Shown: one piece after another, positions 22,298-48,085 of the stretch | Layout of the letters: each line of letters opens with the position of its first letter | How positions within the stretch are numbered: the stretch's first letter is position 1 | The notes under the pieces: model-generated | Told to the model about the DNA's origin: nothing | Database searches by the model: none | The model's input: the letters and a program-made list of their open reading frames with translations, nothing else | Translations under genes and position numbers: made by a program | Source of the DNA: Alphaproteobacteria bacterium | Lineage (GTDB): Bacteria > Pseudomonadota > Alphaproteobacteria > Futianiales > Futianiaceae | Assembly (NCBI GenBank): GCA_965204825.1 | Contig: OZ242016.1 | Span: forward strand, 1,249,252 to 1,313,251 | Direction of reading: 5' to 3' | DNA: 64,000 bases

Positions 22298-22969
22298 TCA
22301 AGCGCCTCCCGCCGCCTGTGCCGAGCCATAGGGCGACAACCCGTCCACATAGGCGAGGCATTCGGTCAGCGACACCACATCGGCATATTTGGCGTCGATG
22401 TCGAACAGATTGGCTTCGTGCGGTCCCTCGGCACGGTCGCCGCAGCCCTCGCGCACCACGATGGTCTGATAACCGTATTGCAGCGAGTCGACGGCCGAGG
22501 CCCGGACACAGCCGCTGGTCGTGCACCCGACGATGACACAAGTATCGACGCCGTGGTTGCGGAAATAGATGTCCAGATTGGTGCCGAAGAACGAACTGGC
22601 GTATTTCTTCGAGATGATATAGTCGCCCGTCCCCGGTTTGATCCGCGCGTCGACTTCGCACATGGGCGAGCCGCGCAGCAGGATGCTCAGCGACGGCACC
22701 TTCCTGATAAAGACGCCAGCATCGGCAAAACCAGGCTCGTATTCGATCACGGTGTAAACAATCGGCAGATCAGCCTTGCGAAAGCTGTTCAGCAGTTTGC
22801 CGGTCGCGTCAAGCTGGCTGGAAAAGTCGCCGCCCAGCGGCGATGTCGGGTCGGTAAACCCGACCATATAGTCGACAATCAGCAAACCTGGCCGCCTGCC
22901 ATAACCCGACCGCACCGCAAACCCCTTGCTTCGATAACTCGCCAGCGTGTCTTTCTGCCAGTTGTGCAT
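22298..22969 (-). CDS. isochorismatase-family cysteine hydrolase (N-carbamoylsarcosine-amidase / maleamate-amidohydrolase / nicotinamidase-like), copy 1
   Basis: LLIVDYMVGFTDP...DLPIVYTV...CVIVGCTTSGCVRASAVDSLQYGYQTIVVREGCGDR gives the catalytic Cys in the conserved GxxTxxCVR context. Confidence 0.75.
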   Translation of the reverse strand: MHNWQKDTLASYRSKGFAVRSGYGRRPGLLIVDYMVGFTDPTSPLGGDFSSQLDATGKLLNSFRKADLPIVYTVIEYEPGFADAGVFIRKVPSLSILLRGSPMCEVDARIKPGTGDYIISKKYASSFFGTNLDIYFRNHGVDTCVIVGCTTSGCVRASAVDSLQYGYQTIVVREGCGDRAEGPHEANLFDIDAKYADVVSLTECLAYVDGLSPYGSAQAAGGA

Positions 22970-23102
22970 GGTAACGTCTCCCGCCGCCAGTTTGGGCCAT
23001 GCCGCAACTCTTGCCAACGGCAATGACCTGTTCCAAAGTTAACAGCATAATCGGCATCCGGCAACGCACTCGCGGCGTTGCCCGCAAGGGGACGGCAGGT
23101 AG

Positions 23103-24140
23103 ATGAGCAAATTTTCGGGACCGGGAAGACGGCCCTATGGTTCGGGGGCGCCGGGCGCCATGACCGGTCCGCGCTATCAGCCAAGGCCGTTGATCTCACC
23201 GTCGTCCGATGCCTCGTCCTTGGCCTCGCGCTCGCTGGTCAATGGCGGCAAGAAGGAAATCCTGTGCGCCATCGGCGTCGATGTGGATGCGGTGGCCGGT
23301 TGGCTGGGATCCTATGGCGGCGAGGATTCGCCGTGCGACATTTCCCGCGGCCTGTTCGCCGGCGAGGTTGGCGTGCCGCGCATGGTCCGCCTGTTCAACC
23401 GGCTGCAGATCCCGACCACCTGGTTCATTCCCGGCCACTCGATCGAAACCTTCCCCGATGAGATCAAAATGGTCGTCGATGCCGGCCACGAGATCGGCAT
23501 GCATGGGTATTCCCACGAAAATCCGATCGCCATGACACCGACCCAGGAAGAGGCGGTGATGGATAAATGCATTGACCTGATCGAGCGAGTCTCGGGCCGC
23601 CGGCCGACGGGGTATGTGGCGCCCTGGTGGGAATTCAGCCCGATCACCAACGAGTTGCTGCTGTCCAAGGGCATCAAATACGACCACAGCCTGATGAATG
23701 ACGATTTTCATCCGTTCTATGTACGGGTCGGCGACAGCTGGACCAAGATTGACTATTCCAAACAGGCTGAAGAATGGATGAAGCCGCTGGTACGCGGTGT
23801 CGAAACCGATCTGATCGACATTCCCGGCAGTTGGTATCTGGATGACCTGCCGCCGATGATGTTTATCAAGGGGGCGCCCAACAGCCACGGCTTCGTCAAT
23901 CCGCGCGACATCGAACAGATCTGGACCGACCAGTTCGACTGGGTCTATCGAGAATACGATTATGCGGTCTACACCCTGACAATCCATCCCGATGTGTCGG
24001 GCCGGCCCCAGGTGCAACTGATGCTGGAACGGGTGATCGACTACATCACCTCCCACGCCGGCGTTCGCTTTTGCACCTTTGACGAGATCGCCGACGATTT
24101 CGCCCGCCGATGCCCCCGCAACCAGACCGCCGCGGAATAA
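23103..24140 (+). CDS. polysaccharide-deacetylase-family (NodB fold) hydrolase, PuuE-allantoinase-like
   Basis: [15 protein letters not shown]...HGYSHENP...YVAPWWEF resemble PuuE/CE4-like metal-dependent amidohydrolases. The true start may be an internal Met (e.g. MTGPRY). Confidence 0.75.
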
Positions 24141-24146
24141 TTATCC

Positions 24147-24473
24147 ATGTGTGGCCTGTGCGGCATATTGGGCGGCAAGGGACACTGGACCGACAGTTCG
24201 ACGACGCTGGACGCTTTTGCCGGGCGCACTGATACCCACACCATGCAGCGTGAGCGCATGGAGCGGACCGCGCTGGTCAACCGGGTACTGAAGCCATACC
24301 GGCTTTCGCTGAAAGACTGGTCGGGGACGTCCTATATGCTGCAGGGCGGCACCGGCAAGACGGCAATGGTCGATAATCTGTCTCAGATGTGGGCCGAGGC
24401 AGAACGCATGACCGGCCAGGATTTCGACCCGCTGGATGAAGCGCTGATCGATGAACTGGCGGCGGATCGCTGA
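24147..24473 (+). CDS. hypothetical 108-aa protein starting MCGLCGILGG, in an operon between the deacetylase and the COG0523 GTPase
   Basis: It starts 6 nt after the deacetylase stop and overlaps the GTPase start by 4 nt (GCTGAATGG). I do not recognise the family. Confidence 0.45.
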   Translation: MCGLCGILGGKGHWTDSSTTLDAFAGRTDTHTMQRERMERTALVNRVLKPYRLSLKDWSGTSYMLQGGTGKTAMVDNLSQMWAEAERMTGQDFDPLDEALIDELAADR

Positions 24474-25508
24474 ATGGCCTATGGCGAGCTGATCCCGGTC
24501 AATATGGTCACCGGCTTTCTCGGCAGCGGCAAGACAACCCTGTTGCAGCGGTTGTTGACGTCAACGCTGCTGGCCGACACCGCCGTGCTGGTCAACGAGT
24601 TCGGCGAAGTGGGCCTTGATCATCACCTGCTGCAAAGCGCAACCAATCCGACATTGCTGATGGACAATGGCTGTGTCTGCTGCGCCATTCGCGGCGATCT
24701 GCAGGACGCCCTGCGGGACCTGTTCAATCAGCGAGAGCGTCGCGAAATTCCGGCCTTCAAACGTGTGGTGATCGAAACCTCCGGCCTCGCCGATCCGGTG
24801 CCGATTGCCTATACGGTGCTGGCCGAACCGGTGCTGCGGCACCATTTCCGCCTCGGCAGTGCCATAACCGCGGTCGATGCGGTGAACGGCCTGAACCAGC
24901 TTGAGGAGTTCGAGGAGTCGGTCAAACAGGTTGCCGTGGCCGATCGGCTGATCCTGACCAAGACCGACATCGCCGAAGAAGGCCAGATTGCCGCGCTGAA
25001 GAACCGCCTGGCCGGGATAAACCTGTCGGCGCCGATACTGGACGCCTCGAGCGACGATCTCAGTCCGCAAAGCCTGGTCGTCGAGGACCTGCACGACCCG
25101 GCCGGCAAGGTCCGCGAAGTCGATCACTGGACGGCGGCAGCCGCCCAGCCCCTGAATCACCATCATACCGAAGGGGTTACGTCATTCGCCCTGGTGCTCG
25201 GCCGACCGCTCGACTGGACCGCCTTCGGCATCTGGATGACCATGTTGCTCAACCGGCACGGAGACCGGCTGCTGCGGATCAAGGGGCTCCTGAATGTCAC
25301 TGGCGTCGCAACCCCGGTGCTGATCAACGGGGTCCAGCACGTCGTTCATCCGCCGGTGCATCTGGAAGCCTGGCCCGACGCCGATCGCCGGTCGCGTCTG
25401 GTATTCATTGTCAATGGAATGGACCGCCAGCGGATTGAAGCCTCGCTGTCGGCCTTCAATGGCCTGGCAAACCCGGTGGATGTTGAAAGAGTTACGTTGT
25501 CTGCCTGA
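24474..25508 (+). CDS. COG0523 (CobW/HypB/UreG-family) GTPase, zinc-metallochaperone-like
   Basis: It has GFLGSGKTTLL (P-loop), CVCC, ETSGLADP and a C-terminal CobW_C domain. Confidence 0.85.
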   Translation: MAYGELIPVNMVTGFLGSGKTTLLQRLLTSTLLADTAVLVNEFGEVGLDHHLLQSATNPTLLMDNGCVCCAIRGDLQDALRDLFNQRERREIPAFKRVVIETSGLADPVPIAYTVLAEPVLRHHFRLGSAITAVDAVNGLNQLEEFEESVKQVAVADRLILTKTDIAEEGQIAALKNRLAGINLSAPILDASSDDLSPQSLVVEDLHDPAGKVREVDHWTAAAAQPLNHHHTEGVTSFALVLGRPLDWTAFGIWMTMLLNRHGDRLLRIKGLLNVTGVATPVLINGVQHVVHPPVHLEAWPDADRRSRLVFIVNGMDRQRIEASLSAFNGLANPVDVERVTLSA

Positions 25509-25514
25509 ACCCGT

Positions 25515-26040
25515 TCAGGACCGCGACGATTGCGTCCGCCTGGGCGGCGCGCGTCTTGTGGTCCAACCATCACGGAAGGCCCGCACCATATGGTGCAGCA
25601 GATAGAACAGCAGCGCCAGGATCACCAACAAAACGATGGCCAGCAGATTTTCGCCGAGCCCCGAACCGATAATCGGTTCATCGCCCATCAAATGCAGGGC
25701 CAGCATGGCGACAGCCTGCAAGGTTGCACCGGCCAGAAAGATCACCGCGATCAGAATCGAGATCTGCAGGGTGTCGAACACCAATACCGTGACATCCAAC
25801 GACGTGACCTGCACCGAAAGGTTCTGACGGAACGAACTCCAGTGCGACACGACATAGGCGATAACGCCGACGGTGGAGGCGAACCAGAAGATCACATTAG
25901 TGAAATGGATGTTGGGGATGGCGTCGATCAGAAAGGTTTCGAACGGCGCGTAGAAATACAGAAAGATCAGACCTATGATGATCGCGATCAGGCCGATCCA
26001 GAAACGGGGCCGGCGGCTGACTTCGATTGCTTCAGACATG
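25515..26040 (-). CDS. small 4-TM membrane protein, unknown family (paralog of 39615-40127)
   Basis: MSEAIEVSRRPRFWIGLIAIIIGLIFLYFYAPFE...NVIFW...HW...LQAVAMLALHL... has the same conserved pattern as the second copy. It is transcribed divergently from hyuA1. Confidence 0.55.
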
Positions 26041-26233: not shown

Positions 26234-28288
26234 ATGCCAAGCCGTCTCGGCATTGACGTTGGAGGCACGCATACGGACTTTCTGTTGTTCGAAGGAACAA
26301 CCGGCCGGATCCATGCGCTCAAAACCCCGTCAACACCCGACGATCCGTTACGTGCCATCCAGCACGGGCTGGAAGAACTGATGCATGCCTCGGGCATTCA
26401 GGCGGACGAGATTACCGATCTGGTGCACGGCACCACGCTGCCGGTCAATCTGGTGCTGGAACGCAAGGGCGCAAAGGTCGGCCTGCTGGTCACCAGAGAC
26501 TTCGAGCAGGTTCTGCATCTGGCGCGCGGGCGCACGCCGGGGCCGCTGACCGGCTGGATGCATATGGACAATCCCGAGGCGCTGGCCGACCTGGGAATGA
26601 CCCGGGGGATCGTCGAGCGCGTCTCGGCCCATGGCGACACGATCACTCAGCTGGATGAGGCCGCGGCGCGCCAGGCAATCGCCGAACTGTTACAGGCCGG
26701 CGCGGAGACGCTGACGGTTTCCCTGCTGCATTCCTATGCCAATCCGGCTCATGAATTGCAACTCAAGGCCATCATCCGGGAAATGAACGAGAAAATTCCG
26801 GTCTCGCTGTCCTGCGAACTGACCCCGGAAGCCGGCGAGTACGAACGAACCCTGGCGAGCGTGATGAACGCCTATGTCCAACCCGGCATGCAGCGCTATC
26901 TCGGCGGTCTCGAAGATCGGTTGAAGTCGGTTCAGGCCGGACCGGAAATCAAGATAGTCCAGTCCTCCGGCAGCCTGACAAGTGCGCGCCAGGCCGCCGA
27001 GACGCCGGTACAGGCCATGACGGCCGGCCCGGCCGGCGGTGCGGCCGGCGCGGCGCGCATTGCCATGTTGGCGGGGTATCCGGACGCGCTGTCGCTGGAT
27101 ATGGGCGGCACGTCGGCGGACATCGCCCTGATCCGCAACGGCATGGCGCGGATGGCGAACCAAACAAATGTGGGCGGCGAACCGGTTACCGTCCCGTCGC
27201 TCAATGTGCGCAGTATCGGCGCCGGCGGCGGGCTGATCGCACATATGCCGATGCCGGGCATGTTGCGCGTCGGGCCGCAAAGCGCCGGAGCTGTGCCAGG
27301 CCCGGCCTGTTACGGACGCGGCGGAAAAACGGCAACGGTAACCGACGCCCATGTGGTGCTGGGCCGTCTGCCGGGCGCGCACCTGTCGCTGGATGTTCAG
27401 GCGGCGGCGAATGTGATGGCCGCTTTCGGGCGCGAACTGGGCCTGGATCGCCACCGCGCGGCCGAGGGTATAATCGACATTGCCAATGAATCCATGGCCG
27501 GCGCCCTGCGCCTGGCGGCCGTGGAAAAAAATCAGTATCCAGGCAATCTTGCCCTGGTCACCTTTGGCGGCGCCGGGCCAATGCACGGCTGTGCCCTGGG
27601 AACGCTGACCGGCGCCCAGCCCGTTATCGTTCCACGCAATGCCGGCGTTCTGTCCGCGCTGGGATTTCTGACATCCGATACAACCGGCCAATTTACACAA
27701 GGGGTGTGCCGGACCCTGGATAATATCGGAATACAACAGATCGGCGAGATCATCGAACGGCTCGGCGCCCGGGCTGCGGCTTGGCTTGCAGCGGAAGGCG
27801 GCGGTGGAACCCGGAGGGTCAACTACCGGGCCGACGTGCGTTATTTCCGGCAGGAATTCCAGACATCGCTGGAGGTCGATCCGGTGAGCCTGGCCCATGG
27901 CGGCCTGAACGCACTGGCCGCCCGTCTGGGCGATGCACACCATCGCCGATTTGGCATGAAGCTGGACCAGCCGGTTGAGATCGTCGCCCTGCGCGCCATC
28001 GCCGCCGTCAAGGAAGAGCATGCTACCTTGCCCAAGTCCGAGCGTGGCGGCCCCGATCCCGCCGCCGCCAGGATTGACGAGACACAGGTCTATTTCGACG
28101 GCGGCTTTACCAGGACCGCCATCTTTAAGCGCAAGAAGTTGACCGCCGGCAACCGGATCCCGGGACCCGCGATCATCGTCCAGAAAGATGCGACCACAGT
28201 CATCCATCCCGGCCATATCGGCGAGGTGGATGATTATCTGAACATTCTTATCCGGACAGAGGGCGCAGCGCCCGGACGGCGGCACTGA
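26234..28288 (+). CDS. hyuA: hydantoinase/oxoprolinase subunit A (HyuA-like, ATP-dependent N-methylhydantoinase A family), copy 1
   Basis: LGIDVGGTHTDFLLF, the sugar-kinase/Hsp70-like ATPase fold and overall colinearity with the hydantoinase A / acetone-carboxylase beta family support the call. Confidence 0.9.
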   Translation: MPSRLGIDVGGTHTDFLLFEGTTGRIHALKTPSTPDDPLRAIQHGLEELMHASGIQADEITDLVHGTTLPVNLVLERKGAKVGLLVTRDFEQVLHLARGRTPGPLTGWMHMDNPEALADLGMTRGIVERVSAHGDTITQLDEAAARQAIAELLQAGAETLTVSLLHSYANPAHELQLKAIIREMNEKIPVSLSCELTPEAGEYERTLASVMNAYVQPGMQRYLGGLEDRLKSVQAGPEIKIVQSSGSLTSARQAAETPVQAMTAGPAGGAAGAARIAMLAGYPDALSLDMGGTSADIALIRNGMARMANQTNVGGEPVTVPSLNVRSIGAGGGLIAHMPMPGMLRVGPQSAGAVPGPACYGRGGKTATVTDAHVVLGRLPGAHLSLDVQAAANVMAAFGRELGLDRHRAAEGIIDIANESMAGALRLAAVEKNQYPGNLALVTFGGAGPMHGCALGTLTGAQPVIVPRNAGVLSALGFLTSDTTGQFTQGVCRTLDNIGIQQIGEIIERLGARAAAWLAAEGGGGTRRVNYRADVRYFRQEFQTSLEVDPVSLAHGGLNALAARLGDAHHRRFGMKLDQPVEIVALRAIAAVKEEHATLPKSERGGPDPAAARIDETQVYFDGGFTRTAIFKRKKLTAGNRIPGPAIIVQKDATTVIHPGHIGEVDDYLNILIRTEGAAPGRRH

Positions 28289-28290
28289 TC

Positions 28291-30549
28291 ATGGCGGAGA
28301 GTGCATCCACCAGGACCCCGGTTTCGCTGGACGATCTGCTGTCGGCAAATCGGAAACGGTTCGACAGCCTGTTCCAGCACCAGATATCCGGACCTGCGCC
28401 GCGCCGGGCACAAGCCGAACCTGAACCCCGCGACGACACCGATGAAGAGAGCACACTTTCATCCGTCCAAGCGATTCCGGCCGCCGGCGCCGGCGAGAAC
28501 ATCGTTGCCGAACTGAACAAACGTTTCACGATCACCTGGTCCAGCGAGGTTCTGGAACGCCGCGTCGAGAGCGACCGTGCGGTTGTCCTGTGCAAGCTTG
28601 ATGTCGGTGATGACTCCCGCACCGAGTCAGGATCAAGCCGGATCGGTGAGGACGGCGACCAGGACGCCGCCTTTGATCGCGCCCTCGCCCGGGCCCTGAA
28701 AAAATGCGCCGACCAGTTCGGTGAAAACGGCGCTGCCGCATCGATTGAAACCATGACCCCAATCGCACCGCTGAGCCCGGCGGCCGAGGCGCGGCGGAGC
28801 GCCTTGCGGGGAAGACTCCTGGATGTGGTCACCATGGACCGGGTCGAGACGGCATTGATGAATGCCCGGCGGGAGATGGAAACGGTTCTGCGGTATTCGG
28901 CCCTGTCACAAGGCCTGCGCGATCACCACGCCGAGCTTTCGATGATCATGGATTTCCAAGGCAATATGATTGCCGGGCGTTATGGCTCCTATGTGGCGCA
29001 CATGCTGAAGGCGCGGAAGCTGTCATTTGCGCCGGGCGATGTGCTGTTGCAAAGCGATCCCTATATCTCCGGCGGCGCGGTCAGCCATCCCAATGACTGG
29101 TTGGTCCTGATGCCGGTGTTCCATGGCTCTGATCTGGCCGGTTTCACGTCGATGTACGGCCATGTCGCCGATGCAGGCGGCCCGGCGGCCGGCAGCATGC
29201 CGGCCGATGCCGGGTCGGTCTTCGGCGAGGGGCTGCGCATTCCGCCGATCAAAATTCTACAATCCGGCGTCCTGAACGAAAGCGCGCTGCAACTGATCCT
29301 GAACAACAGCAGAACGCCGGAAACCAACCGTGCCGACTTGATGGCGCTGATCGCCGGGTGCCGGGCCGGGTCGGAGCAGGTCATCCGGCTGTGCGATCGG
29401 TTTGGACCGGAGCTCTATCACCGGACCTGTACTGCCCTGCTCGACCGCACCAATCAGGCCATGCGTCGGCTGATCGTCGATACGGTTCCCGAGGAACCAC
29501 AATCTTTCGAGGATCAGGTCGATGATGACGGCCGCGGCAATGGCCCCTTCAAGCTGAAACTGACAGTCTGGCGCGAGGGCGCTCATGCCTATTTCGACTG
29601 GACCGGCAGCTCGGCCCAGGCGCCGGGGCCGGTCAATTTCTATCTGCATGTGGGATTGGCCAAGATGTATGCCGGGCTGTATCTGACACGGGTCTTTGGT
29701 CCGGGCAGCGTTTGCAATGACGGTTTTTACGAGTTGATCCACGTGACCTTGCCCAAGGGTTCGCTGTTAAATCCTGAATTTCCCGCTGCGGTCGGTCGCC
29801 GCGATCATGCCCTGGCGCGGCAATTCGATGTGCTGGGAAATGCGCTGGGCCGGCACCGTCCCGAGGAATTGACTGCGGCCAGTTATGGCACCAGCCCGTC
29901 GTTCCGGTACGCCGGATCTGACTTTCAGATGACCGAAACCCTGTTCGGCGGCTTGCCGGGCCGGGACGGCGGTGATGGCATGGACGGGCATTCCCTGTGG
30001 CCGGACGCGCAAAGCGCGGCAACCGAACAGCTGGAAAGCAATTACCCCGTCATTGTTGAAAAATGCGCCTCTATCCCCGACACCGGCGGCGCCGGGCTGC
30101 ATCGCGGCGGCAACGGCGTAGAGAAGATCTACCGGATGCTGGAAGCGGGAGAAGTTTCGATCCACGATGACCGACATGCCTCGCGCCCCTGGGGTATCCG
30201 GGGCGGAAAGGCCGGCGAAGTGTCGGAAAAATGGATTGCACGCGCTGATGGAACCCGCGAGGCGCTGCCGGCGAAAATCGATGGCCTGGCGGTGCAGGCG
30301 GGCGACCGGATCGTTTTCCGGACCGCCGGCGGCGGAGGCTGCGGCGATCCGCTGGACCGCGATCCGGCGCTGGTGCGGCGCGACGTGGCACGCGGATTTC
30401 TGACGGTGGAACAAGCTGGCGCGGCCTATGGCGTCATCCTGTCGGGCGCGCGCCTGGAAATCGATCCGCGGGCGACCCGGGAATTGCGCGAGGGGGTGAA
30501 GCGCGAGCGGAAACCTTTGGAATTGTTTGACTATGGCGATCCGGTTTAG
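28291..30549 (+). CDS. hyuB: hydantoinase/oxoprolinase subunit B (HyuB-like) with a ~165-aa N-terminal extension, copy 1
   Basis: The core from ~residue 170 (MDRVETALMNARREMETVLRYSA...DPYISGGAVSHPNDWLVLMPVF...GLRIPPIKI) matches HyuB and the paralog at 44585. Residues 1-165 are acidic and low-complexity, plus a short globular-looking segment with no HyuB counterpart. Confidence 0.85.
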   Translation: MAESASTRTPVSLDDLLSANRKRFDSLFQHQISGPAPRRAQAEPEPRDDTDEESTLSSVQAIPAAGAGENIVAELNKRFTITWSSEVLERRVESDRAVVLCKLDVGDDSRTESGSSRIGEDGDQDAAFDRALARALKKCADQFGENGAAASIETMTPIAPLSPAAEARRSALRGRLLDVVTMDRVETALMNARREMETVLRYSALSQGLRDHHAELSMIMDFQGNMIAGRYGSYVAHMLKARKLSFAPGDVLLQSDPYISGGAVSHPNDWLVLMPVFHGSDLAGFTSMYGHVADAGGPAAGSMPADAGSVFGEGLRIPPIKILQSGVLNESALQLILNNSRTPETNRADLMALIAGCRAGSEQVIRLCDRFGPELYHRTCTALLDRTNQAMRRLIVDTVPEEPQSFEDQVDDDGRGNGPFKLKLTVWREGAHAYFDWTGSSAQAPGPVNFYLHVGLAKMYAGLYLTRVFGPGSVCNDGFYELIHVTLPKGSLLNPEFPAAVGRRDHALARQFDVLGNALGRHRPEELTAASYGTSPSFRYAGSDFQMTETLFGGLPGRDGGDGMDGHSLWPDAQSAATEQLESNYPVIVEKCASIPDTGGAGLHRGGNGVEKIYRMLEAGEVSIHDDRHASRPWGIRGGKAGEVSEKWIARADGTREALPAKIDGLAVQAGDRIVFRTAGGGGCGDPLDRDPALVRRDVARGFLTVEQAGAAYGVILSGARLEIDPRATRELREGVKRERKPLELFDYGDPV

Positions 30550-30592: not shown

Positions 30593-33409
30593 ATGCTGGA
30601 AATCTGGATTGGGCTTGTCTTCACGGTGATCGTCATCATCGCCGTCTTCTACGTGATTTCAATCTGGGTCTATAAACGGGCCCCGGCGAATATGGGCTTC
30701 ATTCGAACTGGCTTCATGGGGACCAAGGTGTGCCTGGGCCGCGGTGCCATGGTACTGCCGGTGTTCCACGAGGTGTCGTGGATTTCGCTGGAGACCCTGA
30801 AGCTGATCGTCAACCGCTCGCGCGAGCAGGCGGTGCTGACTGCCGACAAGATCCGAATCGACGTGGTGACCGAGCTCTATACCCATGTGGGCCGGACCGA
30901 AGATGACTTGCTGACCGCCAGCAGGTCCCTGGGCGAGAAAACCTTCGAGGCTGACCAGGTCCGTAATCTGCTGGAAGCCAAGGTCATCGGCGCCCTGCGC
31001 AGCTATGCCGCCACCAAGACCCTGACCGAACTGCACGAAAACCGCGACGCCTTCGCCCAGGCGATCAAGGAAGCGGTACTTGAAAGTTTCCGGTCCAATG
31101 GTCTGGAACTGGAGGAAGTCACGATTGTCACCCTGGAACAGGCCGGCAAGGAGTTTTTCAATTCCAACAACATCTTCGATGCCGAGGGTCTGAAAATCAT
31201 CACCGACATCACCTCGGATGCCAAGCGCAAGGTGCACGACACGGAAAAGCGGACCACCGTCGCTATCCGCCAGAAGGATTTGGACACCCAATTGGAGTTG
31301 CTCGAGATCGAGCGGAAAGAGGCTTTTGCCCAAGCCGCCCAGGACAAGGACGTGGCCAACGAGCAGGCCCTGCAACTGGGCGAAAAGCAGGTCTTCCTGC
31401 TTGACCGTCGCAAGGCGGTTGAGGAGCGCGAGATCGCCAACGAGGTCGAGCTGGAACGCCAGCGCACCGATCGCGAACTGGCTGTCACCGAGGAAGCCAA
31501 GAAGCGCGAGCAGGCGGAAATACAGCGCATGCTGGCCCTGGAACAGGAACAGCGCGACAAGGAGATCGCCCTGATCGAAAAGGCCAAGGAAGAGGAACTG
31601 GCCAATATCGAACGCAACCTGTCGCTGGAACAGGCGGAAAAAGACCGGCAGATTGCCTTGATCGAAAAGGCCAAGCAGGAAGAGTTGGCCGAGATCGACC
31701 GCAGTCTTTCCCGCGAACGTGCCGAAAAGGTCCGGTCCATCGAGCTGGCGGCCAGCGAGCGTGAGCGCAAGGAAACCGAGATCGCCCTGGAGACCGAGAT
31801 TCAAAAAGCCGAGGAAGCCGCCCGTGATGCGCGTCATCAGGTGTCGGAGGAGATCGCGATCAAGATCCGCCAGCGCACGCTGGAGACCCGGAAAGAAACC
31901 TTGAACATTGATCAGGACGAGGCGATTGCCGTCGCCCTGCAGGAAAAGACGGTGTCGGAGGAGAAAGCCAAGGCACTGTCGGAGAAACAGCGCAACCTGC
32001 TGGAACGCCGCCTGGAGGTCGAACGCGAGGAGATCGCCAAGGATAAAGCCATCGAGGAAGCACAGATCCGGAAAGAAGCCGAGCTCATCGACATCTCCAA
32101 GGCCCGCGAAGCCGCCGAAATCCGCAAGCAATTGGCCCGCGAGGCTGAGGAACGCGACCGCGATATCGCCCTGGTCGGCAAGGCCGAGGAACTGGAACGG
32201 GCCGAGATCCGCCGCCAACTGGCGCGTGAGGCCGAGGAGCGCGACCGCGAGATCGCCCTGGTCGGCAAGGAGGAGGAATTGCGCAAGGCCGAGGTTCAGC
32301 AGCGCGCAACGATCGAGCTGGAACAGAAGGACAGAGAAATCCGGGTCATCGCCAAGGAGCAGGAACGTGAAAAGGCCGATATCCAGCGCTTCCTGGCCCG
32401 CGAGACCGAGGAACGCGAGCGCGAGATCATCCTGGTCAAAAAGACCCGCGAGCTTGAAGAGGCCGAAATCGACCGTCTGCGGATCACCGCCGAAAAGGCC
32501 AAGGCCGAACACGAAACCGGCGCCGTCCGGATCATCGCCGATGCCGAACAGGAAAAGGCGGTGGAACTGATCCGCGCCGAACAGGCCGCCGACGCCTCGC
32601 GCATTGCCGAAAAGACCCAGGCCGAGATCGCCTCAATGCACCTGGTCAGTGAGGCCGAGGCACGCAAGAATTCCGCCGCGCAGGATTCTGATGCCATCCT
32701 GGTCCGAGCCAGGGCCAACAGCGAGGCTCGGAAGATCTCTGCCAGCGGCATTCAGGAAGAAGCCGCCGCGCGCGGCCGGGCCGAGGCGGAAGTGGAAAGC
32801 CTGCGTGTGGAAAACACGCAAGCCATGCTGGAGGCCGAAGCCACGGGCATGGAGGCCAAGGCAACCGCGTTGAAGAAATACAATGATGCGGCAATGTTCC
32901 TGGAACTGTCCAAACTGCATATCGAGGCCGAGCGCGACGTTCACATCGACCAGGCCAAGGCCATGGGCAACGCCCTGGCGGGAGCTCAGATCCGCATGTA
33001 TGGCGGCGGCGACGGCACGGTCGACACGATCCGCGACATGTTTACGTCGGGCTTCTCGATGGGCGAAGTTCTGGAGGGCGTGGCCCAGTCCCTGCCCGCC
33101 GGCCTGCGCGACCGGTTCGCCAGCAACGGTATTCGCGGCATCTTCGGCAAACCCGGCCGCACCGGCCAGTTCCAGGAAATGGCCGGCCAGCTGGCGCAAT
33201 TGGTGCGCGATAATTTCGGCAACAAGAAATCGCGCGAGATCCCCTTCGGCGAGGCCATGGCGGTGCTGGAAAACAAGGCTGGCGACAACGAGGTCCAGGT
33301 TCAGGCCCTGAACCTCCTGAAAACTGCCAATGAAGACGGCGTCTTCAACGAGGTACCGTTCGACACGGTCTGGTCGCTGTTGCAGGCCACCGCCAAGGCG
33401 GCGGAATAG
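30593..33409 (+). CDS. flotillin-like SPFH/band-7 protein (YqiK-like) with a greatly expanded coiled-coil repeat region (~940 aa)
   Basis: An N-terminal TM helix is followed by an SPFH domain (FIRTGFMGTKVCLGRGAMVLPVFHEV...), then by EA-rich heptad repeats that include near-identical ~29-aa units. The C-terminus is flotillin-type. The gene follows hyuB1 on the same strand. Confidence 0.75.
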   Translation: MLEIWIGLVFTVIVIIAVFYVISIWVYKRAPANMGFIRTGFMGTKVCLGRGAMVLPVFHEVSWISLETLKLIVNRSREQAVLTADKIRIDVVTELYTHVGRTEDDLLTASRSLGEKTFEADQVRNLLEAKVIGALRSYAATKTLTELHENRDAFAQAIKEAVLESFRSNGLELEEVTIVTLEQAGKEFFNSNNIFDAEGLKIITDITSDAKRKVHDTEKRTTVAIRQKDLDTQLELLEIERKEAFAQAAQDKDVANEQALQLGEKQVFLLDRRKAVEEREIANEVELERQRTDRELAVTEEAKKREQAEIQRMLALEQEQRDKEIALIEKAKEEELANIERNLSLEQAEKDRQIALIEKAKQEELAEIDRSLSRERAEKVRSIELAASERERKETEIALETEIQKAEEAARDARHQVSEEIAIKIRQRTLETRKETLNIDQDEAIAVALQEKTVSEEKAKALSEKQRNLLERRLEVEREEIAKDKAIEEAQIRKEAELIDISKAREAAEIRKQLAREAEERDRDIALVGKAEELERAEIRRQLAREAEERDREIALVGKEEELRKAEVQQRATIELEQKDREIRVIAKEQEREKADIQRFLARETEEREREIILVKKTRELEEAEIDRLRITAEKAKAEHETGAVRIIADAEQEKAVELIRAEQAADASRIAEKTQAEIASMHLVSEAEARKNSAAQDSDAILVRARANSEARKISASGIQEEAAARGRAEAEVESLRVENTQAMLEAEATGMEAKATALKKYNDAAMFLELSKLHIEAERDVHIDQAKAMGNALAGAQIRMYGGGDGTVDTIRDMFTSGFSMGEVLEGVAQSLPAGLRDRFASNGIRGIFGKPGRTGQFQEMAGQLAQLVRDNFGNKKSREIPFGEAMAVLENKAGDNEVQVQALNLLKTANEDGVFNEVPFDTVWSLLQATAKAAE
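32140..32320 (+). repeat. tandem ~87-bp coding repeats (RQLAREAEERDR[D/E]IALVGK[A/E]EEL[E/R][R/K]AE[I/V]) inside the flotillin gene
   Basis: Direct nucleotide repeats (gcccgcgaggctgaggaacgcgaccgcgatatcgccctggtcggcaaggccgaggaactgga...) occur twice in tandem. A third degenerate copy lies at ~32390 and another repeat pair at ~31560-31740. Confidence 0.5.
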
Positions 33410-34538: not shown

Positions 34539-34620
34539 GAAGGATCAAGCGCAGCGCGACCCACCGAGGGCACGTCAATTATACCGCTGCAACGGCAGGT
34601 CGCCAGTTGGTTGACCCGCC

Positions 34621-35448: not shown

Positions 35449-35646
35449 CTATGCCGTACCTCTGAAGGGTGTTGATGGTTTGATGTTGCCGTCAATTGTT
35501 CTCGAATTTCCCGGACGGAGCGGCGTCAGCCGCGCAGAGCCGGGAAATTCTGGAGGATCGATAGGGTGAAAAGATACCTTGGGATACTGCCCTGTATCCC
35601 GGATCAAGTCCGGGATGACGGTTGAATTTAAACTCCTCGCCAAAAC

Positions 35647-36627: not shown

Positions 36628-36729
36628 GCGGCTTTCAGGGTATCAAATGTCGAGGCCGGCATGACTTACGCCACACCGGCCTCGGCAGTTTTCCATATGA
36701 TCCCGACATGGAAACCACTTCATCCGGCC

Positions 36730-39632: not shown

Positions 39633-40127
39633 GTCTGATCCGGCACCGACCGGGTCCGATGCCCCCACCGTCCGAATATTTTTCAGCAGCCAGAAAATGA
39701 TACAGAACAGGCCGGTCAGGATGAGCAGCGCAATCAGCGCGACCAGCCGTTTGCCGAAGGCGCCGTCCAGTGCGTAGCCCGGCTGCAGCAGGTGGACGGC
39801 CAGCATCTGCATGGCCTGCAGCGCCGCGCTGGCGCTGAGCAGGATGGCAGTGAAGGTCGACCCCCGGAGTGAACTGAGAACCATGGCCTCGACATTGCGC
39901 TGTTTGACGATGTGCAGGCGATAGGCCCGCCAGTGGAAGGCGCAAAAGCCGATAATGCCGATGATCACCCCGGCCCAGAAGATTGCATTGCTGTAGCTCA
40001 GGCCACGGACGACCAGATTGAACAAATCTTCGAACGGTTTATAGAAATACAGGAATATCAGGACGATGATGTAGACGATGAAACCCACGAGGGTCCAAAA
40101 CCACTGCCAGACGCTCATATCCCCCAC
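39615..40127 (-). CDS. small 4-TM membrane protein, unknown family (paralog of 25515-26040)
   Basis: The shared motifs are LIFLYFYKPFE...NAIFW...HW...LQAMQMLAVHL. Its 3' end overlaps the dihydropyrimidinase 3' end in convergent orientation. Confidence 0.55.
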   Translation of the reverse strand: MGDMSVWQWFWTLVGFIVYIIVLIFLYFYKPFEDLFNLVVRGLSYSNAIFWAGVIIGIIGFCAFHWRAYRLHIVKQRNVEAMVLSSLRGSTFTAILLSASAALQAMQMLAVHLLQPGYALDGAFGKRLVALIALLILTGLFCIIFWLLKNIRTVGASDPVGAGSDLNPMA

Positions 40128-40200: not shown

Positions 40201-41277
40201 TCAAGCAACCGCCTCGGGCCGCGCGGCAATCAGCAGGATCACGTAAAGAATCAGGAAAATAATGTCCTTCGCGGTTCCGGCGCCCTGGCTGTCATTGTCG
40301 CGATTGGCGATCAGAACGATGATCTCCAGCACGAAGAAGATCAGGGCCAGGAAGAAGAACGGCCAGATCGTCCCCCACCAGGAAATCTCTGGCGCCAGTT
40401 CAACCTCCTGAACCGTTTGCCAGATCAACAGCAGAATGGGCAGCGCCAGCAAATAGAGATGGCCGATCAGGAATCGCAACCGTGTGACCTTGCGATCGAT
40501 GATCCATAGCACCAGCAGAAACGCCAGCACATTGAGGAAGTCCCAGAACATCGCGGCATAGGCGTCGCCGGCGCCTGAATTAAGCAGATTGAGATATCCG
40601 ATCAGATAAAGGAACACGATGGCGTCGCAGAACAGCCATTCGCGCAGCGTCTCGTCCGGCAGCTTGATATTCCAGGCGCGGCTGGCCTTGTCGAACAGCA
40701 TCACCAGTGCCACGATCAGCCCGGCCGGATAGATCAGATACAGCATCATCGAATACTGTTGTTCATGAGGCACATAGGACCAGTTCAGAATCAGATAGGC
40801 GATGCCGAGGCCGAAGAGGCCAAGCAATCGGACCGCGGACGGGCTTTCATGGCTGGCGACTCGCTCGGATACCGGTTCCGGCACGACGGTATCTGTCGCC
40901 ATTAGACCAATGGGCGACGCCGCCGAAGCCGGGCCCTGGCGGTTCCGCGCAACGCGCCAGAACATGGTCAGCAGGAAGATGATCAACCCGGCGCCGCCGA
41001 TAATCAACATAATGACAAAGAATGTCAGGCCGCGCGTATCGGCGCTCCAATCGATCTCGGTCCAGGGCGGGAACTGCCACAGAAACAAGACGGCAATGAT
41101 GCCAACCGCGGCGGTGGCCAGCAGGAATTCATACCATTGCGGCTGATAGCCGGCGCCCTGCCCGCCCGGTGTGGTGCGCAAGGCGTGGCGGGAGACCAGG
41201 AAAATCAGAAACGCGATGACACCGACAATGCCGATGGCTGCCATGACTTCCAGGAAGGCGACAGACCTGCTGTCCAC
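40201..41277 (-). CDS. polytopic (~9 TM) membrane protein of unknown family
   Basis: It is a 358-aa hydrophobic ORF located between the small membrane protein and the divergent isochorismatase-family gene. I recognise no motif. Confidence 0.5.
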   Translation of the reverse strand: MDSRSVAFLEVMAAIGIVGVIAFLIFLVSRHALRTTPGGQGAGYQPQWYEFLLATAAVGIIAVLFLWQFPPWTEIDWSADTRGLTFFVIMLIIGGAGLIIFLLTMFWRVARNRQGPASAASPIGLMATDTVVPEPVSERVASHESPSAVRLLGLFGLGIAYLILNWSYVPHEQQYSMMLYLIYPAGLIVALVMLFDKASRAWNIKLPDETLREWLFCDAIVFLYLIGYLNLLNSGAGDAYAAMFWDFLNVLAFLLVLWIIDRKVTRLRFLIGHLYLLALPILLLIWQTVQEVELAPEISWWGTIWPFFFLALIFFVLEIIVLIANRDNDSQGAGTAKDIIFLILYVILLIAARPEAVA

Positions 41278-41455: not shown

Positions 41456-42103
41456 ATGAGCGATCCATCCGACAGCATCTACAAGGACCGCAGTTATGGC
41501 GCCGGCGAGATCGGCTATGGCGATATGCCGGGGATCGCGGTGGTGGATTTCCAGAATGCCTTTACCGATCCGCAATATGCCCTGGGCGGGGCACCGATGA
41601 TCGACCGGGCGGTGAACAATAGCGCCCGCCTGCTGGACGTGGCCCGCCGGTGCAAGGTTCCGGTCGCGACCTGCTATACGGCCTACACCTCCAAGGCGGA
41701 CATGCCCTATTGGAAGGTATCCGCGGTGCAGGAACAGCTGATCCACGGCAGTCACGCGACGGAACTGGACCCACGGATCTATGATCCCGACTATGATGTG
41801 CGTCTGAGCAAGACCGGTGCGTCGATCTTCTTTCAGACCCCGATCGTACCGTTCATGGTGAAACAGAAGGTGGACACGCTGATCGTCGTCGGCTGTGTCA
41901 CCTCGGGCTGTGTTCGCGCTTCGATCATCGACAGTTTTCAGAACGGGTTCCGCACCATCGTGCCCGAGGACGGGGTCGGCGATCAGGACGAGCGGCCGCA
42001 CAATGACAATCTGCGCGATGTCGACCGGCGCTATTGCGACATCACCGATGTCGATAGCGTAATCGAATGGATCGAGGCCTGGCGCGGGCGCAACGAACAC
42101 TGA
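41456..42103 (+). CDS. isochorismatase-family cysteine hydrolase (N-carbamoylsarcosine-amidase-like), copy 2
   Basis: IAVVDFQNAFTDP...VPVATCYTAY...LIVVGCVTSGCVRASIIDSFQNGFRTIVPEDGVGD shows the same catalytic Cys context as copy 1. Confidence 0.8.
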   Translation: MSDPSDSIYKDRSYGAGEIGYGDMPGIAVVDFQNAFTDPQYALGGAPMIDRAVNNSARLLDVARRCKVPVATCYTAYTSKADMPYWKVSAVQEQLIHGSHATELDPRIYDPDYDVRLSKTGASIFFQTPIVPFMVKQKVDTLIVVGCVTSGCVRASIIDSFQNGFRTIVPEDGVGDQDERPHNDNLRDVDRRYCDITDVDSVIEWIEAWRGRNEH

Positions 42104-42139: not shown

Positions 42140-44563
42140 ATGGCAAAAGATCGTGACACCATCACCAGTTGGTTCGACAACCAGTTGGACGATCTCAAGG
42201 GCGAATTCGACCGCCTGGGCGGCGACGCCGGGCAACCCAATGGGCGCCCGCCGGTCGGCCGGCCATCGGTCGAGAGTCGATCCGGCGCCAATGGCGGATC
42301 GGCAAACATCGCGCCGCCGCCGTCATCCAAACCGCCTGTCATTTCGCCGCCACCGAAGATCGCGCCGCCCGAGGTGGCCCGTGCACGCAATGCCCCGGCA
42401 CCCGCTCCCTCAACGCCGTCCTACACCCCGCCGCCGTCGGTACCTGCCGCGGCAAGGCCTGCATCGCCCAAGCCGCGGGAAGCACCGCGCCGGCGGGCAA
42501 CATCCGGCGGAGGCTATATGCTGGGGGTCGATGTGGGCGGCACCTTCACCGATCTGCTGCTGATCGAGGAAAGCAGTGGGCTGACATTTACCGCCAAGGT
42601 GCCCTCCACGCCGCAGGATTCCTCTGTCGGAGTCCTGAACGGGATTGAGCGCATCTGCGGTATTGCCAGGATCAAGCCGACGGCCATCAACCAGGTGATG
42701 CACGGCACGACAGTGGCCACCAACACAGTGCTGACCAATTCGGGCGCGCGGGTCGGTCTGGTCACGACCAGGGGGTACAAGCAGACACTGCAGATCGCCC
42801 GATCCTATGTGCCCGGCGGCCTTGGCGGCTGGGTGATCTTCAACAAGACCGACCCGCTGGCGCCGCTGGAGCTGACCATCGAAGCCGACGAGCGGATGGA
42901 CGCCAAGGGCGAGATCGTCGATCCGCTGGATGAGGCGAAAATGAAGGCCGACCTTGCCAAACTGGCCGGCGAAGGGATCGAGGCGCTGACCGTCTCGCTG
43001 ATGAACGCCTATACCAACGGCATCCACGAACAGAAGATCCGCTCGATCGCCGAACAGGTTCTACCTGGCGTGCCGGTGTCGATCTCGTCTGAAATCGTGC
43101 CGGAGATGTACGAGTATGAGCGCACCGAAACCACAGTGGTGAACTCCTATATCAGGCCAGTGGTAGGCAAATATATCGAGAACCTGCGGAACGAACTGGA
43201 CCGGCGGATGAGTAGGGTGCAACTGCATATCCTGCGGTCTGACGGCGGATTATCCTCGGACGAGGCAGCCAAGGAGCTGCCCGTAAACCTGCTGATGAGC
43301 GGTCCGGCCGGCGGCGTCTCCGGCGCCATCTGGATGGCGAAACAGGCCGGCTTCAAGGATCTGCTGACCTTCGACATGGGGGGCACGTCAACCGACGTGG
43401 CCCTGATCCAGGACGGCGTGGCCCAAACCCGGCGCGAAACCCGCATTGCCGACGTTACCGTGCGCGCACCCTCGGTCGATGTCCGTACGGTCGGCGCCGG
43501 CGGCGGTTCAATCGCCTATGTGCCCGAACTGACCAAAGCCTTGCGCGTCGGCCCGCAAAGCGCCGGCGCGGAGCCTGGCCCCGCGGCCTATGGCAAGGGC
43601 GGCATGGAACCGACAGTGACCGACGCCAATGTGGTGCTGGGGTATCTGCCCTCGACCTCCAGGCTGGGTGGGGACATGCAACTTGACCGCGCAGCCTCGG
43701 AAAAGGTGGTCAAGACAGTGGCCGATGCCATGGGCCTGCAAATGAAAGAGGCCGCGGAAGGCATCATCAATATCGTCAACGAGAACATGTTCGGTGCCCT
43801 GCGCCTTGTTTCCGTCGAGCGGGGGTTCGATCCGCGCGACTTCGCCCTGATCGGTTTTGGCGGCGCCGGTCCCTTGCATGCCAATGCTCTGGGCAAGCTG
43901 ATGAATTCCTGGCCGGTGATCATTCCGCCCGGGCCCGGCGTTCTGTGCGCTTATGGCGACGCCACGACCCGGGTGCGGAACGAGGCATCGCGCACATTCG
44001 TGCGCCGCTTCGATGATACCAGCGACGGTGAAGTGCTCGGCATCCTGCAGGACCTGGCCGCTTCGGCCGCCCAGGCCCTGAACGACGAGGGCGTGCCGCG
44101 CGGAGAACAGACAACCCAGTATCAGATCGACCTGCGCTATGCCGGCCAGGGCATGCGTCTGAGCGTGAACATGAGCCCGGAAGAGTTTGCCAGCCAAGGC
44201 CTGAAAGAACTGGGCCACCGGTTCGACGACCTGCACGAGCAACTGTTTACCTTCCGCCTGGATACACCGCATGAGCTCTACAATTTGCGTGCCGTGGTCC
44301 AGGGGCGTGAGAGCCTGGCGACCGCCGGCGCCCTGCCGACCGGCACAGGCGACGCATCGGGCGCGGTGCACGAGAAATCGACCATCTTCTTCGAGAGTCG
44401 CGATCATCCTGCCCGGATCTATGACCGCGCTTTGCTGAAAGCGGGGGACCGAATCCCCGGTCCGGCCATCGTTACCGAGATGGATTCAACGTCACTGATC
44501 CTGCCTGGCCACACCGGCGAGGTGGACCCGGTCGGCAATATCCTCATCCGCCCGGCGCAATAA
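42140..44563 (+). CDS. hyuA: hydantoinase/oxoprolinase subunit A (HyuA-like) with a 125-aa proline-rich N-terminal extension, copy 2
   Basis: The core starts at YMLGVDVGGTFTDLLLIEE (~42515). The ORF is open from the ATG at 42140, which has a GGAGGA RBS, through a segment encoding APPPSSKPPVISPPPKIAPPEV...STPSYTPPPSVPAAARPASPKPREAPRRR. Confidence 0.85.
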   Translation: MAKDRDTITSWFDNQLDDLKGEFDRLGGDAGQPNGRPPVGRPSVESRSGANGGSANIAPPPSSKPPVISPPPKIAPPEVARARNAPAPAPSTPSYTPPPSVPAAARPASPKPREAPRRRATSGGGYMLGVDVGGTFTDLLLIEESSGLTFTAKVPSTPQDSSVGVLNGIERICGIARIKPTAINQVMHGTTVATNTVLTNSGARVGLVTTRGYKQTLQIARSYVPGGLGGWVIFNKTDPLAPLELTIEADERMDAKGEIVDPLDEAKMKADLAKLAGEGIEALTVSLMNAYTNGIHEQKIRSIAEQVLPGVPVSISSEIVPEMYEYERTETTVVNSYIRPVVGKYIENLRNELDRRMSRVQLHILRSDGGLSSDEAAKELPVNLLMSGPAGGVSGAIWMAKQAGFKDLLTFDMGGTSTDVALIQDGVAQTRRETRIADVTVRAPSVDVRTVGAGGGSIAYVPELTKALRVGPQSAGAEPGPAAYGKGGMEPTVTDANVVLGYLPSTSRLGGDMQLDRAASEKVVKTVADAMGLQMKEAAEGIINIVNENMFGALRLVSVERGFDPRDFALIGFGGAGPLHANALGKLMNSWPVIIPPGPGVLCAYGDATTRVRNEASRTFVRRFDDTSDGEVLGILQDLAASAAQALNDEGVPRGEQTTQYQIDLRYAGQGMRLSVNMSPEEFASQGLKELGHRFDDLHEQLFTFRLDTPHELYNLRAVVQGRESLATAGALPTGTGDASGAVHEKSTIFFESRDHPARIYDRALLKAGDRIPGPAIVTEMDSTSLILPGHTGEVDPVGNILIRPAQ

Positions 44564-44584
44564 CGCCAGCACAAGGCTTTTCAG

Positions 44585-46480
44585 ATGCCCGCAACAATCA
44601 TCCAGTCCAATACCTGCCCGTTCAACCGGGTCGATATCGACCCGATCACGCTGGACATCATCGAGAACGCGCTGAAAAACGCACGCACCGAAATGGATGC
44701 AGTCCTGTTCCGCACCGCCATGTCACCCGGCATCCGCGAGCAGCACGATGCCTTTCCGATGATCGCCAATCCGGAAGGCAAGATGGTGGTCGGCCAGTTC
44801 GGTTCGTTCTTTTCCGGCTTCAAGGAGGGCTATGACGGCGATATCGAAGAAGGCGATATCTTCCTGACCAATGATCCATATGGATGCAACGGCGCGGTCA
44901 GCCACCTCAATGACTGGCTGACCCTGATGCCGGTCTATATCGACGGTCGGATTGTCGCCTGGGCGGCGATGTTCGGGCATATGACCGATATCGGCGGCAA
45001 GGTGCCTGGTAGTCTGCCGACCGATGCGGCCCAGATCTTCGAGGAAGGTATCCAGATCCCGCCGGTCAAGATCTATCGTCAGGGCAAGCTGAACGAGGAG
45101 ATCCTCAACCTGATTTTGCGCAATTGTCGCCTGCCGGAATGGAACAAATCCGATTTCAACGCCATTGTTGCTGCTCTGCGCATGGCCGAACGGCGGGTGG
45201 TGGAAATGGCTGACCGGTTCGGTGTCGATCAACTGGTCGGCGCCATGCAGGAGATGCTGGACCGCAACAAGATGGCCATGGGCGAGATTCTGAAAATCGT
45301 CGTGCCCGAGACCAAGCAGTATTTCGAGGACTATATCGACGATGACGGCATGGGCATGGGCCCCTACAAGATCGCCTGCCATCTGTGGCGCGAGGGTGAT
45401 GGCGTGGTGTTTGATTTCGAGGGCACCGACCCCCAGTCGATCAGCTCGGTGAATTTCCTTCTGAACGAGGAAATGTTCAAAATGTTCCTCGGCTCGTTCT
45501 TCATCAACATTTTCGATCCGCAGATCCTGTTCAATGACGGTTTCTACGATCTGGTCGAGGTGAGGATTCCGCGCGGCTCGATCCTGAAACCGATCCGGCC
45601 GGCGGCGCTGTCATCACGCACCCATATGCTGGCGCGGATCTTCGATATTATGAGCGGCCTCCTGGGCCAGGGATCGCCCGATGCACTGTGTGCCGCCGGA
45701 TTTTCCGACAGTCCACACTTCATGTATTCGGGCTATAACAAGCACGGCGAATGGTACCAGCTCTATCAAATCGGTTTCGGCGGTGTACCCGGCCGGCCGG
45801 CCGGCGACGGTCCCGACGGGCATTCCCTGTGGCCGGCCTTTACCAATGTGCCGAACGAGTTTCTCGAGGCGTATTTTCCGCTGCGCATAGTCAGATACGA
45901 GACCATCGCCGACAGCGGCGGGCCCGGCCAGCACCGCGGTGGCAACGGCCTGTCGATGGGTTATCAGTTCCTGGAACCCGGCGAAATTTCGATCCACGAT
46001 GACCGTTGGCTGACCCACCCCTGGGGCGTTAATGGCGGCCTGCCGGGCCAGCGCAGCGACAAGCGGATGGTGCGCGCCGACGGCACGTCGGAATGGATGG
46101 AATCCAAGTGCGACCGGATCAAGGTCGATACCGGAGACATACTCTATTTCAATACCTGGGGCGGTGGTGGCTGGGGCGACCCCCTGGAGCGCGATGCCGA
46201 ACAGGTGTCCCTGGACGCACGGCGCGGCCTGATCACTGCGGAAGGGGCGAAACGCTATGGCGTCGCCCTGAACGACGACCTGTCGGTCGACCGGCGCGCG
46301 ACCGATGAATTGCGCAAACGCATGGCATCCGAACGTGGCCCGGTCGAGTTGTTCGATCGGGGTGGCACCGTCGAGGAACTGAAAGCCCGCTGCAAGGCCG
46401 ACACCCATTTCGATCCGCCCCGCTCGCCGGTCTTCCAGAAATGGATGGGGCGGCAGGATCTACCGACCGCGGCGGAATGA
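44585..46480 (+). CDS. hyuB: hydantoinase/oxoprolinase subunit B (HyuB-like), copy 2
   Basis: DIIENALKNARTEMDAVLFRTAMSP...DPYGCNGAVSHLNDWLTLMPVY...GIQIPPVKI is the canonical HyuB pattern. It starts 19 nt after hyuA2. Confidence 0.9.
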   Translation: MPATIIQSNTCPFNRVDIDPITLDIIENALKNARTEMDAVLFRTAMSPGIREQHDAFPMIANPEGKMVVGQFGSFFSGFKEGYDGDIEEGDIFLTNDPYGCNGAVSHLNDWLTLMPVYIDGRIVAWAAMFGHMTDIGGKVPGSLPTDAAQIFEEGIQIPPVKIYRQGKLNEEILNLILRNCRLPEWNKSDFNAIVAALRMAERRVVEMADRFGVDQLVGAMQEMLDRNKMAMGEILKIVVPETKQYFEDYIDDDGMGMGPYKIACHLWREGDGVVFDFEGTDPQSISSVNFLLNEEMFKMFLGSFFINIFDPQILFNDGFYDLVEVRIPRGSILKPIRPAALSSRTHMLARIFDIMSGLLGQGSPDALCAAGFSDSPHFMYSGYNKHGEWYQLYQIGFGGVPGRPAGDGPDGHSLWPAFTNVPNEFLEAYFPLRIVRYETIADSGGPGQHRGGNGLSMGYQFLEPGEISIHDDRWLTHPWGVNGGLPGQRSDKRMVRADGTSEWMESKCDRIKVDTGDILYFNTWGGGGWGDPLERDAEQVSLDARRGLITAEGAKRYGVALNDDLSVDRRATDELRKRMASERGPVELFDRGGTVEELKARCKADTHFDPPRSPVFQKWMGRQDLPTAAE

Positions 46481-46484
46481 CGGG

Positions 46485-47180
46485 TTACCCCTTCGCCGCC
46501 ATGATTGCTTTCAAATCGATGTCGAAGGTGTTCTGAACGATCTCGGCGATCCGGTCGTAGACACAGCCGACCCGGATGGTTTCGAAATTCTCCAGATCGA
46601 CGATGGTGCTGCCGAGCCCGCGGTCATTGTGATAGGGTACCAAGCCGTAATCGATCTGGATATCGGCGATATCGCGCACCTGGTCCTGGACATCCTGCAA
46701 CACGAATTTGCTCCCCGTCAGCGATACGTTCGCCGACGAGCCGGACACGCCATAGGCGTTTTCCCGCGCCAGACGGGCAATCTCGTCATGCAGCGGCCCG
46801 GCGTTCAGCAGCACGTCCATGGTGCCGGCCTTGGTCGCGTTCTTGAAGGTGAAGGGAGGCAGTCCCCGTGCCAACGGATGTTCGGCGCGCAAGGGGCCAA
46901 CCACGGAAAACGGCAGATCGTGATCCTGGGTGATGACACGCACCATCTCGCGTGCCTGTTTGGTCACGTCGAGTAATTCGTTGAACAGCTGCCAGTCGCC
47001 GAAGTTGCCGCACGGTTTTTCAAACGAACGTTCCTTGGCCTTGTAGATTCGCCGGATTGCCTCGTCCTCGTGCCCGACAATGGCGTAACCGACGCTGACC
47101 GGGAAGATCGCCACGCCGCCATTGCGCACGGTTTCAAATATCCGCGCCGCGTCTTCCTTGATAGGCTGTCCCTCAAACAT
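46485..47180 (-). CDS. YrdC/Sua5-domain (L-threonylcarbamoyladenylate-synthase fold) protein, paralog A
   Basis: VAIFPVSVGYAIVG (compare YPTDTVYGLG), KAKERSFEKP (KxRPxxKP), GVSGSSANVS (STSANxSG) and GSTIVDL (PSTIVD) match YrdC/Sua5 landmarks. The start is at MFEGQ, with an RBS GGAAGG. Confidence 0.65.
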   Translation of the reverse strand: MFEGQPIKEDAARIFETVRNGGVAIFPVSVGYAIVGHEDEAIRRIYKAKERSFEKPCGNFGDWQLFNELLDVTKQAREMVRVITQDHDLPFSVVGPLRAEHPLARGLPPFTFKNATKAGTMDVLLNAGPLHDEIARLARENAYGVSGSSANVSLTGSKFVLQDVQDQVRDIADIQIDYGLVPYHNDRGLGSTIVDLENFETIRVGCVYDRIAEIVQNTFDIDLKAIMAAKG

Positions 47181-47335
47181 CCTTCCCCGCTCCCCTTTCT
47201 CGATTACCCGTTGGGACGATAGAGGCAGGCGCGAAATTGACCAAGCAGGGATGTGGTAGGTGCATGAGCGTAGAAGAATTGGCCTCCTCTTCAAAATCAT
47301 GCTGAACTGTCGGCCGTCTTGGAGGGAGCGACGGA

Positions 47336-48085
47336 GTGGGCAGACCGGATATTGCGGCGGACGCGCAACGGGCCTTTGATGTACTGTGGTCGGGCGGCAC
47401 CGCGATCCTGCCGATGGATGTGGGATATTCCCTGATCGGCGGGTCGGCGGACGCGCTGTCGGCGATATTCCGGACCAAGGGACGCGCGCCGTCAAAACTG
47501 AATGCCATGCTGGGCGACATGACGCTGCACCGGGAGATCCACCGTCTGGACACACGGGGGCGGGAAATCGCCGAGGCCATCACGCTCGACTATGACCTGC
47601 CGCTCGGCGCCATCGCCCCGGCGGATCTGGATCATCCGATCCTACGCAAAATGGCGCCGGGCGCCCTGGCCCGCAGCAGCAAGACCGGCACCGTACTGAT
47701 GCTGCTCAATGCCGGCCAATTCCATGGTGAGATCTGCCGGCTGAGCCGCGAACACATCCATCCCCTGTTCGGCTCATCGGCCAACCGGTCGCTGCAGGGT
47801 ACGAAATTCCGGGTTGAGGACATGGAACCGGAGATCACCGCCATCGCCGATATCATCATCGACCACGGCTTGCGGAAGTATCATCTCTATGGGGCGTCCT
47901 CGACGCTGCTGGATCTGCAAACCCTGGAAGTTGTCCGTTTCGGATCCTGCTTTGAGTTGATCCGCGACATTCTGAACCGGCACTTCAACGTCGCCCTGCC
48001 GGACCCGCCCGCGATCGATGCCGGTGAGATCACCGACAAAGGCTACATCAAATCAGCGCGCGGTTTTGGAAAACCGGTTGGCTGA
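47336..48085 (+). CDS. YrdC/Sua5-domain protein, paralog B (divergent from paralog A)
   Basis: TAILPMDVGYSLIGG, KGRAPSKL, LFGSSANRSLQG and GASSTLLDL give the same YrdC landmarks. It is ~30% identical to paralog A by eye. Confidence 0.65.
   Translation: MGRPDIAADAQRAFDVLWSGGTAILPMDVGYSLIGGSADALSAIFRTKGRAPSKLNAMLGDMTLHREIHRLDTRGREIAEAITLDYDLPLGAIAPADLDHPILRKMAPGALARSSKTGTVLMLLNAGQFHGEICRLSREHIHPLFGSSANRSLQGTKFRVEDMEPEITAIADIIIDHGLRKYHLYGASSTLLDLQTLEVVRFGSCFELIRDILNRHFNVALPDPPAIDAGEITDKGYIKSARGFGKPVG

Follow-up and report, generated by a model that had tools for sequence, protein, structure and literature searches.

A probable cyclic-amide catabolic island with two old copies of a predicted ring-opening enzyme and amidase module

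Enzymes of the Hyu family convert ATP to ADP and Pi, activating a carbonyl. The reaction types found within the family have been described previously (PMC5214803, PMC8453981). A second described system is that of Helicobacter pylori HP0310 (HpPgdA), a protein without a signal peptide, whose crystal structure lacks a polysaccharide groove and whose substrate is likely a small molecule; homologs of HP0310 have been reported beside polyamine-type importers, and HP0310 and HP0312 were the anchor genes in a cross-genome comparison of the locus (PMC3084791).

Relatives of both systems are encoded within the window, the 64-kb stretch of DNA that was analyzed here. The region from 18.3 to 48.1 kb probably represents a conserved catabolic island of 30 kb whose substrates would be small cyclic amides, either ureides or imides. 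As judged from the sequences, its core consists of two anciently duplicated modules, each predicted to combine an ATP-driven ring-opening enzyme with an ammonia-releasing amidase. All of the genes named in the first-pass annotation of this DNA were found in place by ORF, Pfam and NCBIfam analysis, with the exception of the end of mem1 (see below).

The paralogous HyuA/HyuB and amidase modules

In module 1, the ATPase (ASKHA) subunit HyuA1 (26234-28288, + strand), with Hydant_A_N, Hydantoinase_A and Hydant_A_C domains, precedes the catalytic subunit HyuB1 (28291-30549, +), in which PF02538 covers residues 178-687, following an N-terminal extension of 177 aa. In module 2, the ATPase subunit HyuA2 (42140-44563, +) carries an extension of 127 aa, its Pfam domains starting at residue 128, and is followed by the catalytic subunit HyuB2 (44585-46480, +; PF02538, E 1e-148). 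The best solved relative was N-methylhydantoinase 7hk5, at about 33-35% identity (389, 225, 442 and 236 bits for HyuA1, HyuB1, HyuA2 and HyuB2, respectively), and caprolactamase was the second-best hydrolase match (316 bits for HyuA1; 180 for HyuB1 and 398 for HyuA2 with 6yra; 207 for HyuB2 with caprolactamase B). Scores on the caprolactamase models were far under the cut-offs of 1000 (HyuA1 on CapA, 435 bits; HyuB2 on CapB, 216 bits), and those against acetophenone and acetone carboxylases were much lower for all four subunits. By these comparisons, both pairs belong to the hydrolase branch of the family. Since the family uses ATP hydrolysis for carbonyl activation, the HyuA/HyuB heteromer would, by homology, open a ring amide bond at the expense of ATP.

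Each module also encodes an isochorismatase-family Cys-amidase of the N-carbamoylsarcosine-amidase/maleamate-amidase clade, Iso1 (22298-22969, -; PF00857, E 1e-31) and Iso2 (41456-42103, +; PF00857), so that the enzyme pair proposed earlier for each module was recovered in both. The Asp/Lys/Cys triad (D31/K119/C152 in Iso2) is present in both proteins and was invariant in 46 of 46 relatives. Because the triad is intact, Iso is expected to remove the terminal amide or carbamoyl group exposed by ring opening as NH3 (plus CO2 in the case of a carbamoyl). An Iso protein was encoded in all 31 loci containing a HyuA2 ortholog (at least 60% identity) and in 30 of 31 with a HyuB2 ortholog. We consider this core, ring opening by HyuA/HyuB followed by Iso, very likely to be as described.

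The two-module structure of the first-pass annotation was borne out by BLASTP, in which five protein types appeared as paralog pairs: HyuA (42% identity, E 4e-171), HyuB (44%, E 1e-175), Iso (36%, E 6e-38), Mem (34%, E 5e-21) and YrdC-like (38%, E 2e-47). This paralogy is far beyond chance. The suggested check of gene-neighborhood conservation gave the same picture, as both modules recur together in loci of other genomes (L007 and L016-L018), with orthologs 56-88% identical; the duplication is therefore old, and both copies have been retained.

YrdC-like partners of module 2

The divergent gene pair placed earlier at the end of the modules proved to encode conserved partners of HyuA2B2-Iso2, in both Alpha- and Betaproteobacteria, according to the gene neighborhoods. 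YrdC1 (46485-47180, -; PF01300) is a divergent YrdC/Sua5-fold protein (40.5 bits on the TsaC model, cut-off 123) with 357 relatives in GTDB species genomes, and its paralog YrdC2 (47336-48085, +; PF01300) is divergently transcribed. Of 80 loci with a YrdC-like gene, 36 also encoded HyuA and HyuB within 10 kb and 45 encoded Iso. Same-strand hyuA-hyuB-yrdC-iso arrays exist at only about 50% YrdC identity. The YrdC-like proteins probably constitute a conserved fourth component of module 2.

Like threonylcarbamoyl-AMP synthases, these proteins keep the ATP-binding KxR and SxN motifs, which were invariant in 85 of 85 sequences, whereas a further conserved position differs and would lie in the threonine pocket. 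The YrdC-like proteins might act on a pathway intermediate by adenylating its carboxyl or carbamate group, which is the weakest step of the proposed scheme. They may alternatively serve in organic-acid metabolism rather than in the Hyu step. The pair, divergent or tandem, recurs in many loci, some of which (L010, L024-L027 and L030) lack HyuAB; in Variovorax paradoxus (CP063167) it is likewise found without HyuAB, beside LeuCD-like, ICL-like and CoA-ligase genes. The literature search retrieved no paper linking hydantoinase genes with YrdC, consistent with the first-pass view that the combination with YrdC and novel membrane proteins is undescribed.

Membrane proteins, flotillin and appended elements

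The membrane proteins in question have no covering family in Pfam or NCBIfam. Mem1 (25515-26039, -), transcribed divergently from hyuA1, and Mem2 (39615-40127, -) are 4-TM proteins of an unnamed family, the former with four hydrophobic segments and with a 56% identical ortholog in the same position in L086. The end of mem1 at 26040 in the first-pass annotation is one base out of frame. All 553 clusters of Mem2 homologs were "hypothetical", and none contained a Pfam domain. M358 (40201-41277, -), a 10-TM protein of another unnamed family, is always paired with Mem2-type genes; its homologs (241 clusters) also lack a Pfam domain, and its AF2 model (pLDDT 77 overall, mostly >90 in the C-terminal half) matched no solved fold (best E 1.2). 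M358 orthologs of 43-49% identity were found in L083, L084, L088 and L089, and Mem2-type genes adjoin HyuAB in L084/85 and L089. In addition to the two lineages of the window, Mem and M358 accompany a third HyuAB lineage (about 30-37% identity) and flank an unrelated PspA-NfeD-flotillin operon without HyuAB (L083).

Module 1 continues into a conserved operon, hyuA1-hyuB1-flotillin-potA. The giant flotillin-like SPFH protein (30593-33409, +; PF01145) has one N-terminal TM, followed by a long Glu/Ala/Arg-rich region, presumably a coiled-coil, with 29-aa repeats (87-nt repeats in the DNA); it scored 38.5 bits on the FloT model (cut-off 700). The last gene encodes a PotA-type ABC ATPase (33432-34538, +; PF00005), with 335 bits on the PotA model, under its cut-off. 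The entire order, including the divergent mem1, is kept in L086, a TARA contig, in which the enzymes are only 43-50% identical, in comparison with 64% for flotillin and 73% for PotA. Flotillin was found beside HyuAB only in the HyuA1B1 lineage (the window, L086, and L016 and L018, where the matches adjoin hyuB1); elsewhere it adjoins PotA (68% identical) in L088, without HyuAB, and occurs with Mem/M358 in L083.

Both modules bear N-terminal additions that were new to this analysis. In HyuB1, an amphipathic helix (SLDDLLSANRKRFDSLF; 28327-28386, +; residues 13-32 of the AF2 model) is followed by a disordered linker (low confidence, residues 33-66) and a Rad52-fold (α-β-β-β-α) domain (28489-28731, +). 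The helix motif is kept in HyuB1-type proteins and in a free-standing 142-aa protein of L084, and HyuB of the third lineage carries the same Rad52-fold domain, C-terminally in L084/85 and N-terminally in L089. HyuA2 has a conserved N-terminal amphipathic helix with the motif "S-WFD-x-Q-L…EFDRLGG" (42164-42223, +), followed by a flexible, hypervariable Pro/Ala-rich linker that cannot be aligned between orthologs. In 15,313 six-frame ORFs, taken from the window, from contig L001 (nearly identical to it) and from a further 18 loci, all 20 matches to the WFD regular expression were N-termini of HyuA2 orthologs; L002 carries the motif as well. In the raw table the motif is associated with Mem/M358 (14/18 versus 2/13, p = 0.001; of the two exceptions, one was missed by the regular expression and the other is a truncated gene). 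Phylogeny confounds this association, as every carrier of the motif belongs to a single clade with HyuA2 identity of at least 77%.

These helices, linkers and the Rad52-fold domain may be appended docking elements. Together with the co-encoded Mem, M358 and giant flotillin, they suggest that the enzymes work at the cell membrane and that a membrane platform adjacent to the importer could be the site of ring opening; we rate such tethering of HyuAB as close to an even call. Mem and M358 could also simply be a transporter.

Importer, ring hydrolases and substrate class

The PotABCD-type ABC system (33432-38004), which may import the substrate, comprises PotA and an oppositely oriented cluster (34621-38004, -) of two permeases (34621-35448 and 35647-36627; PF00528) and a PotD/PotF-like solute-binding protein (36730-38004; PF13416). 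This cluster is kept with module 2 in L002, L003, L005, L009, L012 and L088.

Two ATP-independent ring hydrolases could widen or precede the Hyu/Iso steps. The first is a dihydropyrimidinase/D-hydantoinase (38181-39632, +; TIGR02033, 591.5 bits, cut-off 393), with an 85% identical ortholog in the same position in L088. The second, a CE4-family hydrolase (23103-24140, +; PF01522), had been called PuuE-like. It is instead an HP0310 ortholog (513.8 bits with 3qbu, about 73% identity over 291 aa) located beside a COG0523 GTPase, and its score of 80 bits on the PuuE model (cut-off 424.6) argues against a PuuE allantoinase. Its substrate is likely a small-molecule (cyclic) amide. The COG0523/CobW-type G3E GTPase (24474-25508, +; PF02492 and PF07683) may serve the CE4 hydrolase as a metallochaperone. 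In L007 and L016-L018 the two genes are again neighbors, and the 108-aa protein encoded between them (24147-24473, +; N-terminus MCGLCG), which matched nothing in Pfam or NCBIfam, is kept in position at 69-73% identity.

At the left end of the island, the de-aminated skeleton would pass to a family III (CaiB-like) CoA-transferase (18344-19621, -; PF02515, E 4e-128), an HMG-CoA-lyase-like lyase (19658-20617, +; PF00682, E 2.5e-42) and an isocitrate-lyase/PEP-mutase-family lyase (21114-21980, -; PF13714, E 3e-42) related to methylisocitrate or dimethylmalate lyases (254 bits on the prpB model, cut-off 354). CoA-transferase and HMGL-like genes lie directly beside HyuA2B2-YrdC-Iso2 in L044, L063, L069 and L081, with 70% identity to the CoA-transferase of L044 and 59% to the HMGL-like gene of L081, and the HMGL-like family is present in 18 of 80 YrdC loci. 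Orthologs (50% identity) of the third enzyme adjoin related HyuAB loci (L063 and L089), a PEP-mutase-family gene adjoins the L086 operon, and MmgE/PrpD genes are among the neighbors in related loci. Conceivably, the CoA-transferase, HMGL and MmgE/PrpD genes form a separate neighboring pathway.

These neighbors make a substituted C4-C6 dicarboxylate the most probable skeleton, and cyclic imides no less likely than the cyclic ureides contemplated in the first-pass annotation, which are retained as an option. The amidases are nearest to N-carbamoylsarcosine amidohydrolases and, almost as close, maleamate amidases. For Iso2 the best matches were 26st (126 bits), maleamate amidase 4l07 (117) and 1nba (106). 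A cyclic imide, converted to a half-amide and then to the dicarboxylate, would suit both this relationship and the conserved neighbors, and is tentatively preferred. A hydantoin or dihydropyrimidine ureide is only slightly less likely; it is favored for module 1 by Iso1, which among solved structures matches a deposited "N-carbamoylsarcosine amidohydrolase" clearly better than any other (26st, 213.6 bits, versus 147 for NicF and Ami and 121 for 1nba). The analogy drawn earlier with creatinine catabolism held for the enzyme pair and not for the tie to N-methylhydantoin or creatinine: the 64-kb window contains no creatinine deaminase, creatininase or sarcosine oxidase, and with the neighbors pointing to a dicarboxylate, a creatinine pathway is unlikely. 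Another lactam is an unlikely substrate class. As a minor observation, the iso1 ORF can be extended to a TTG at 23023.

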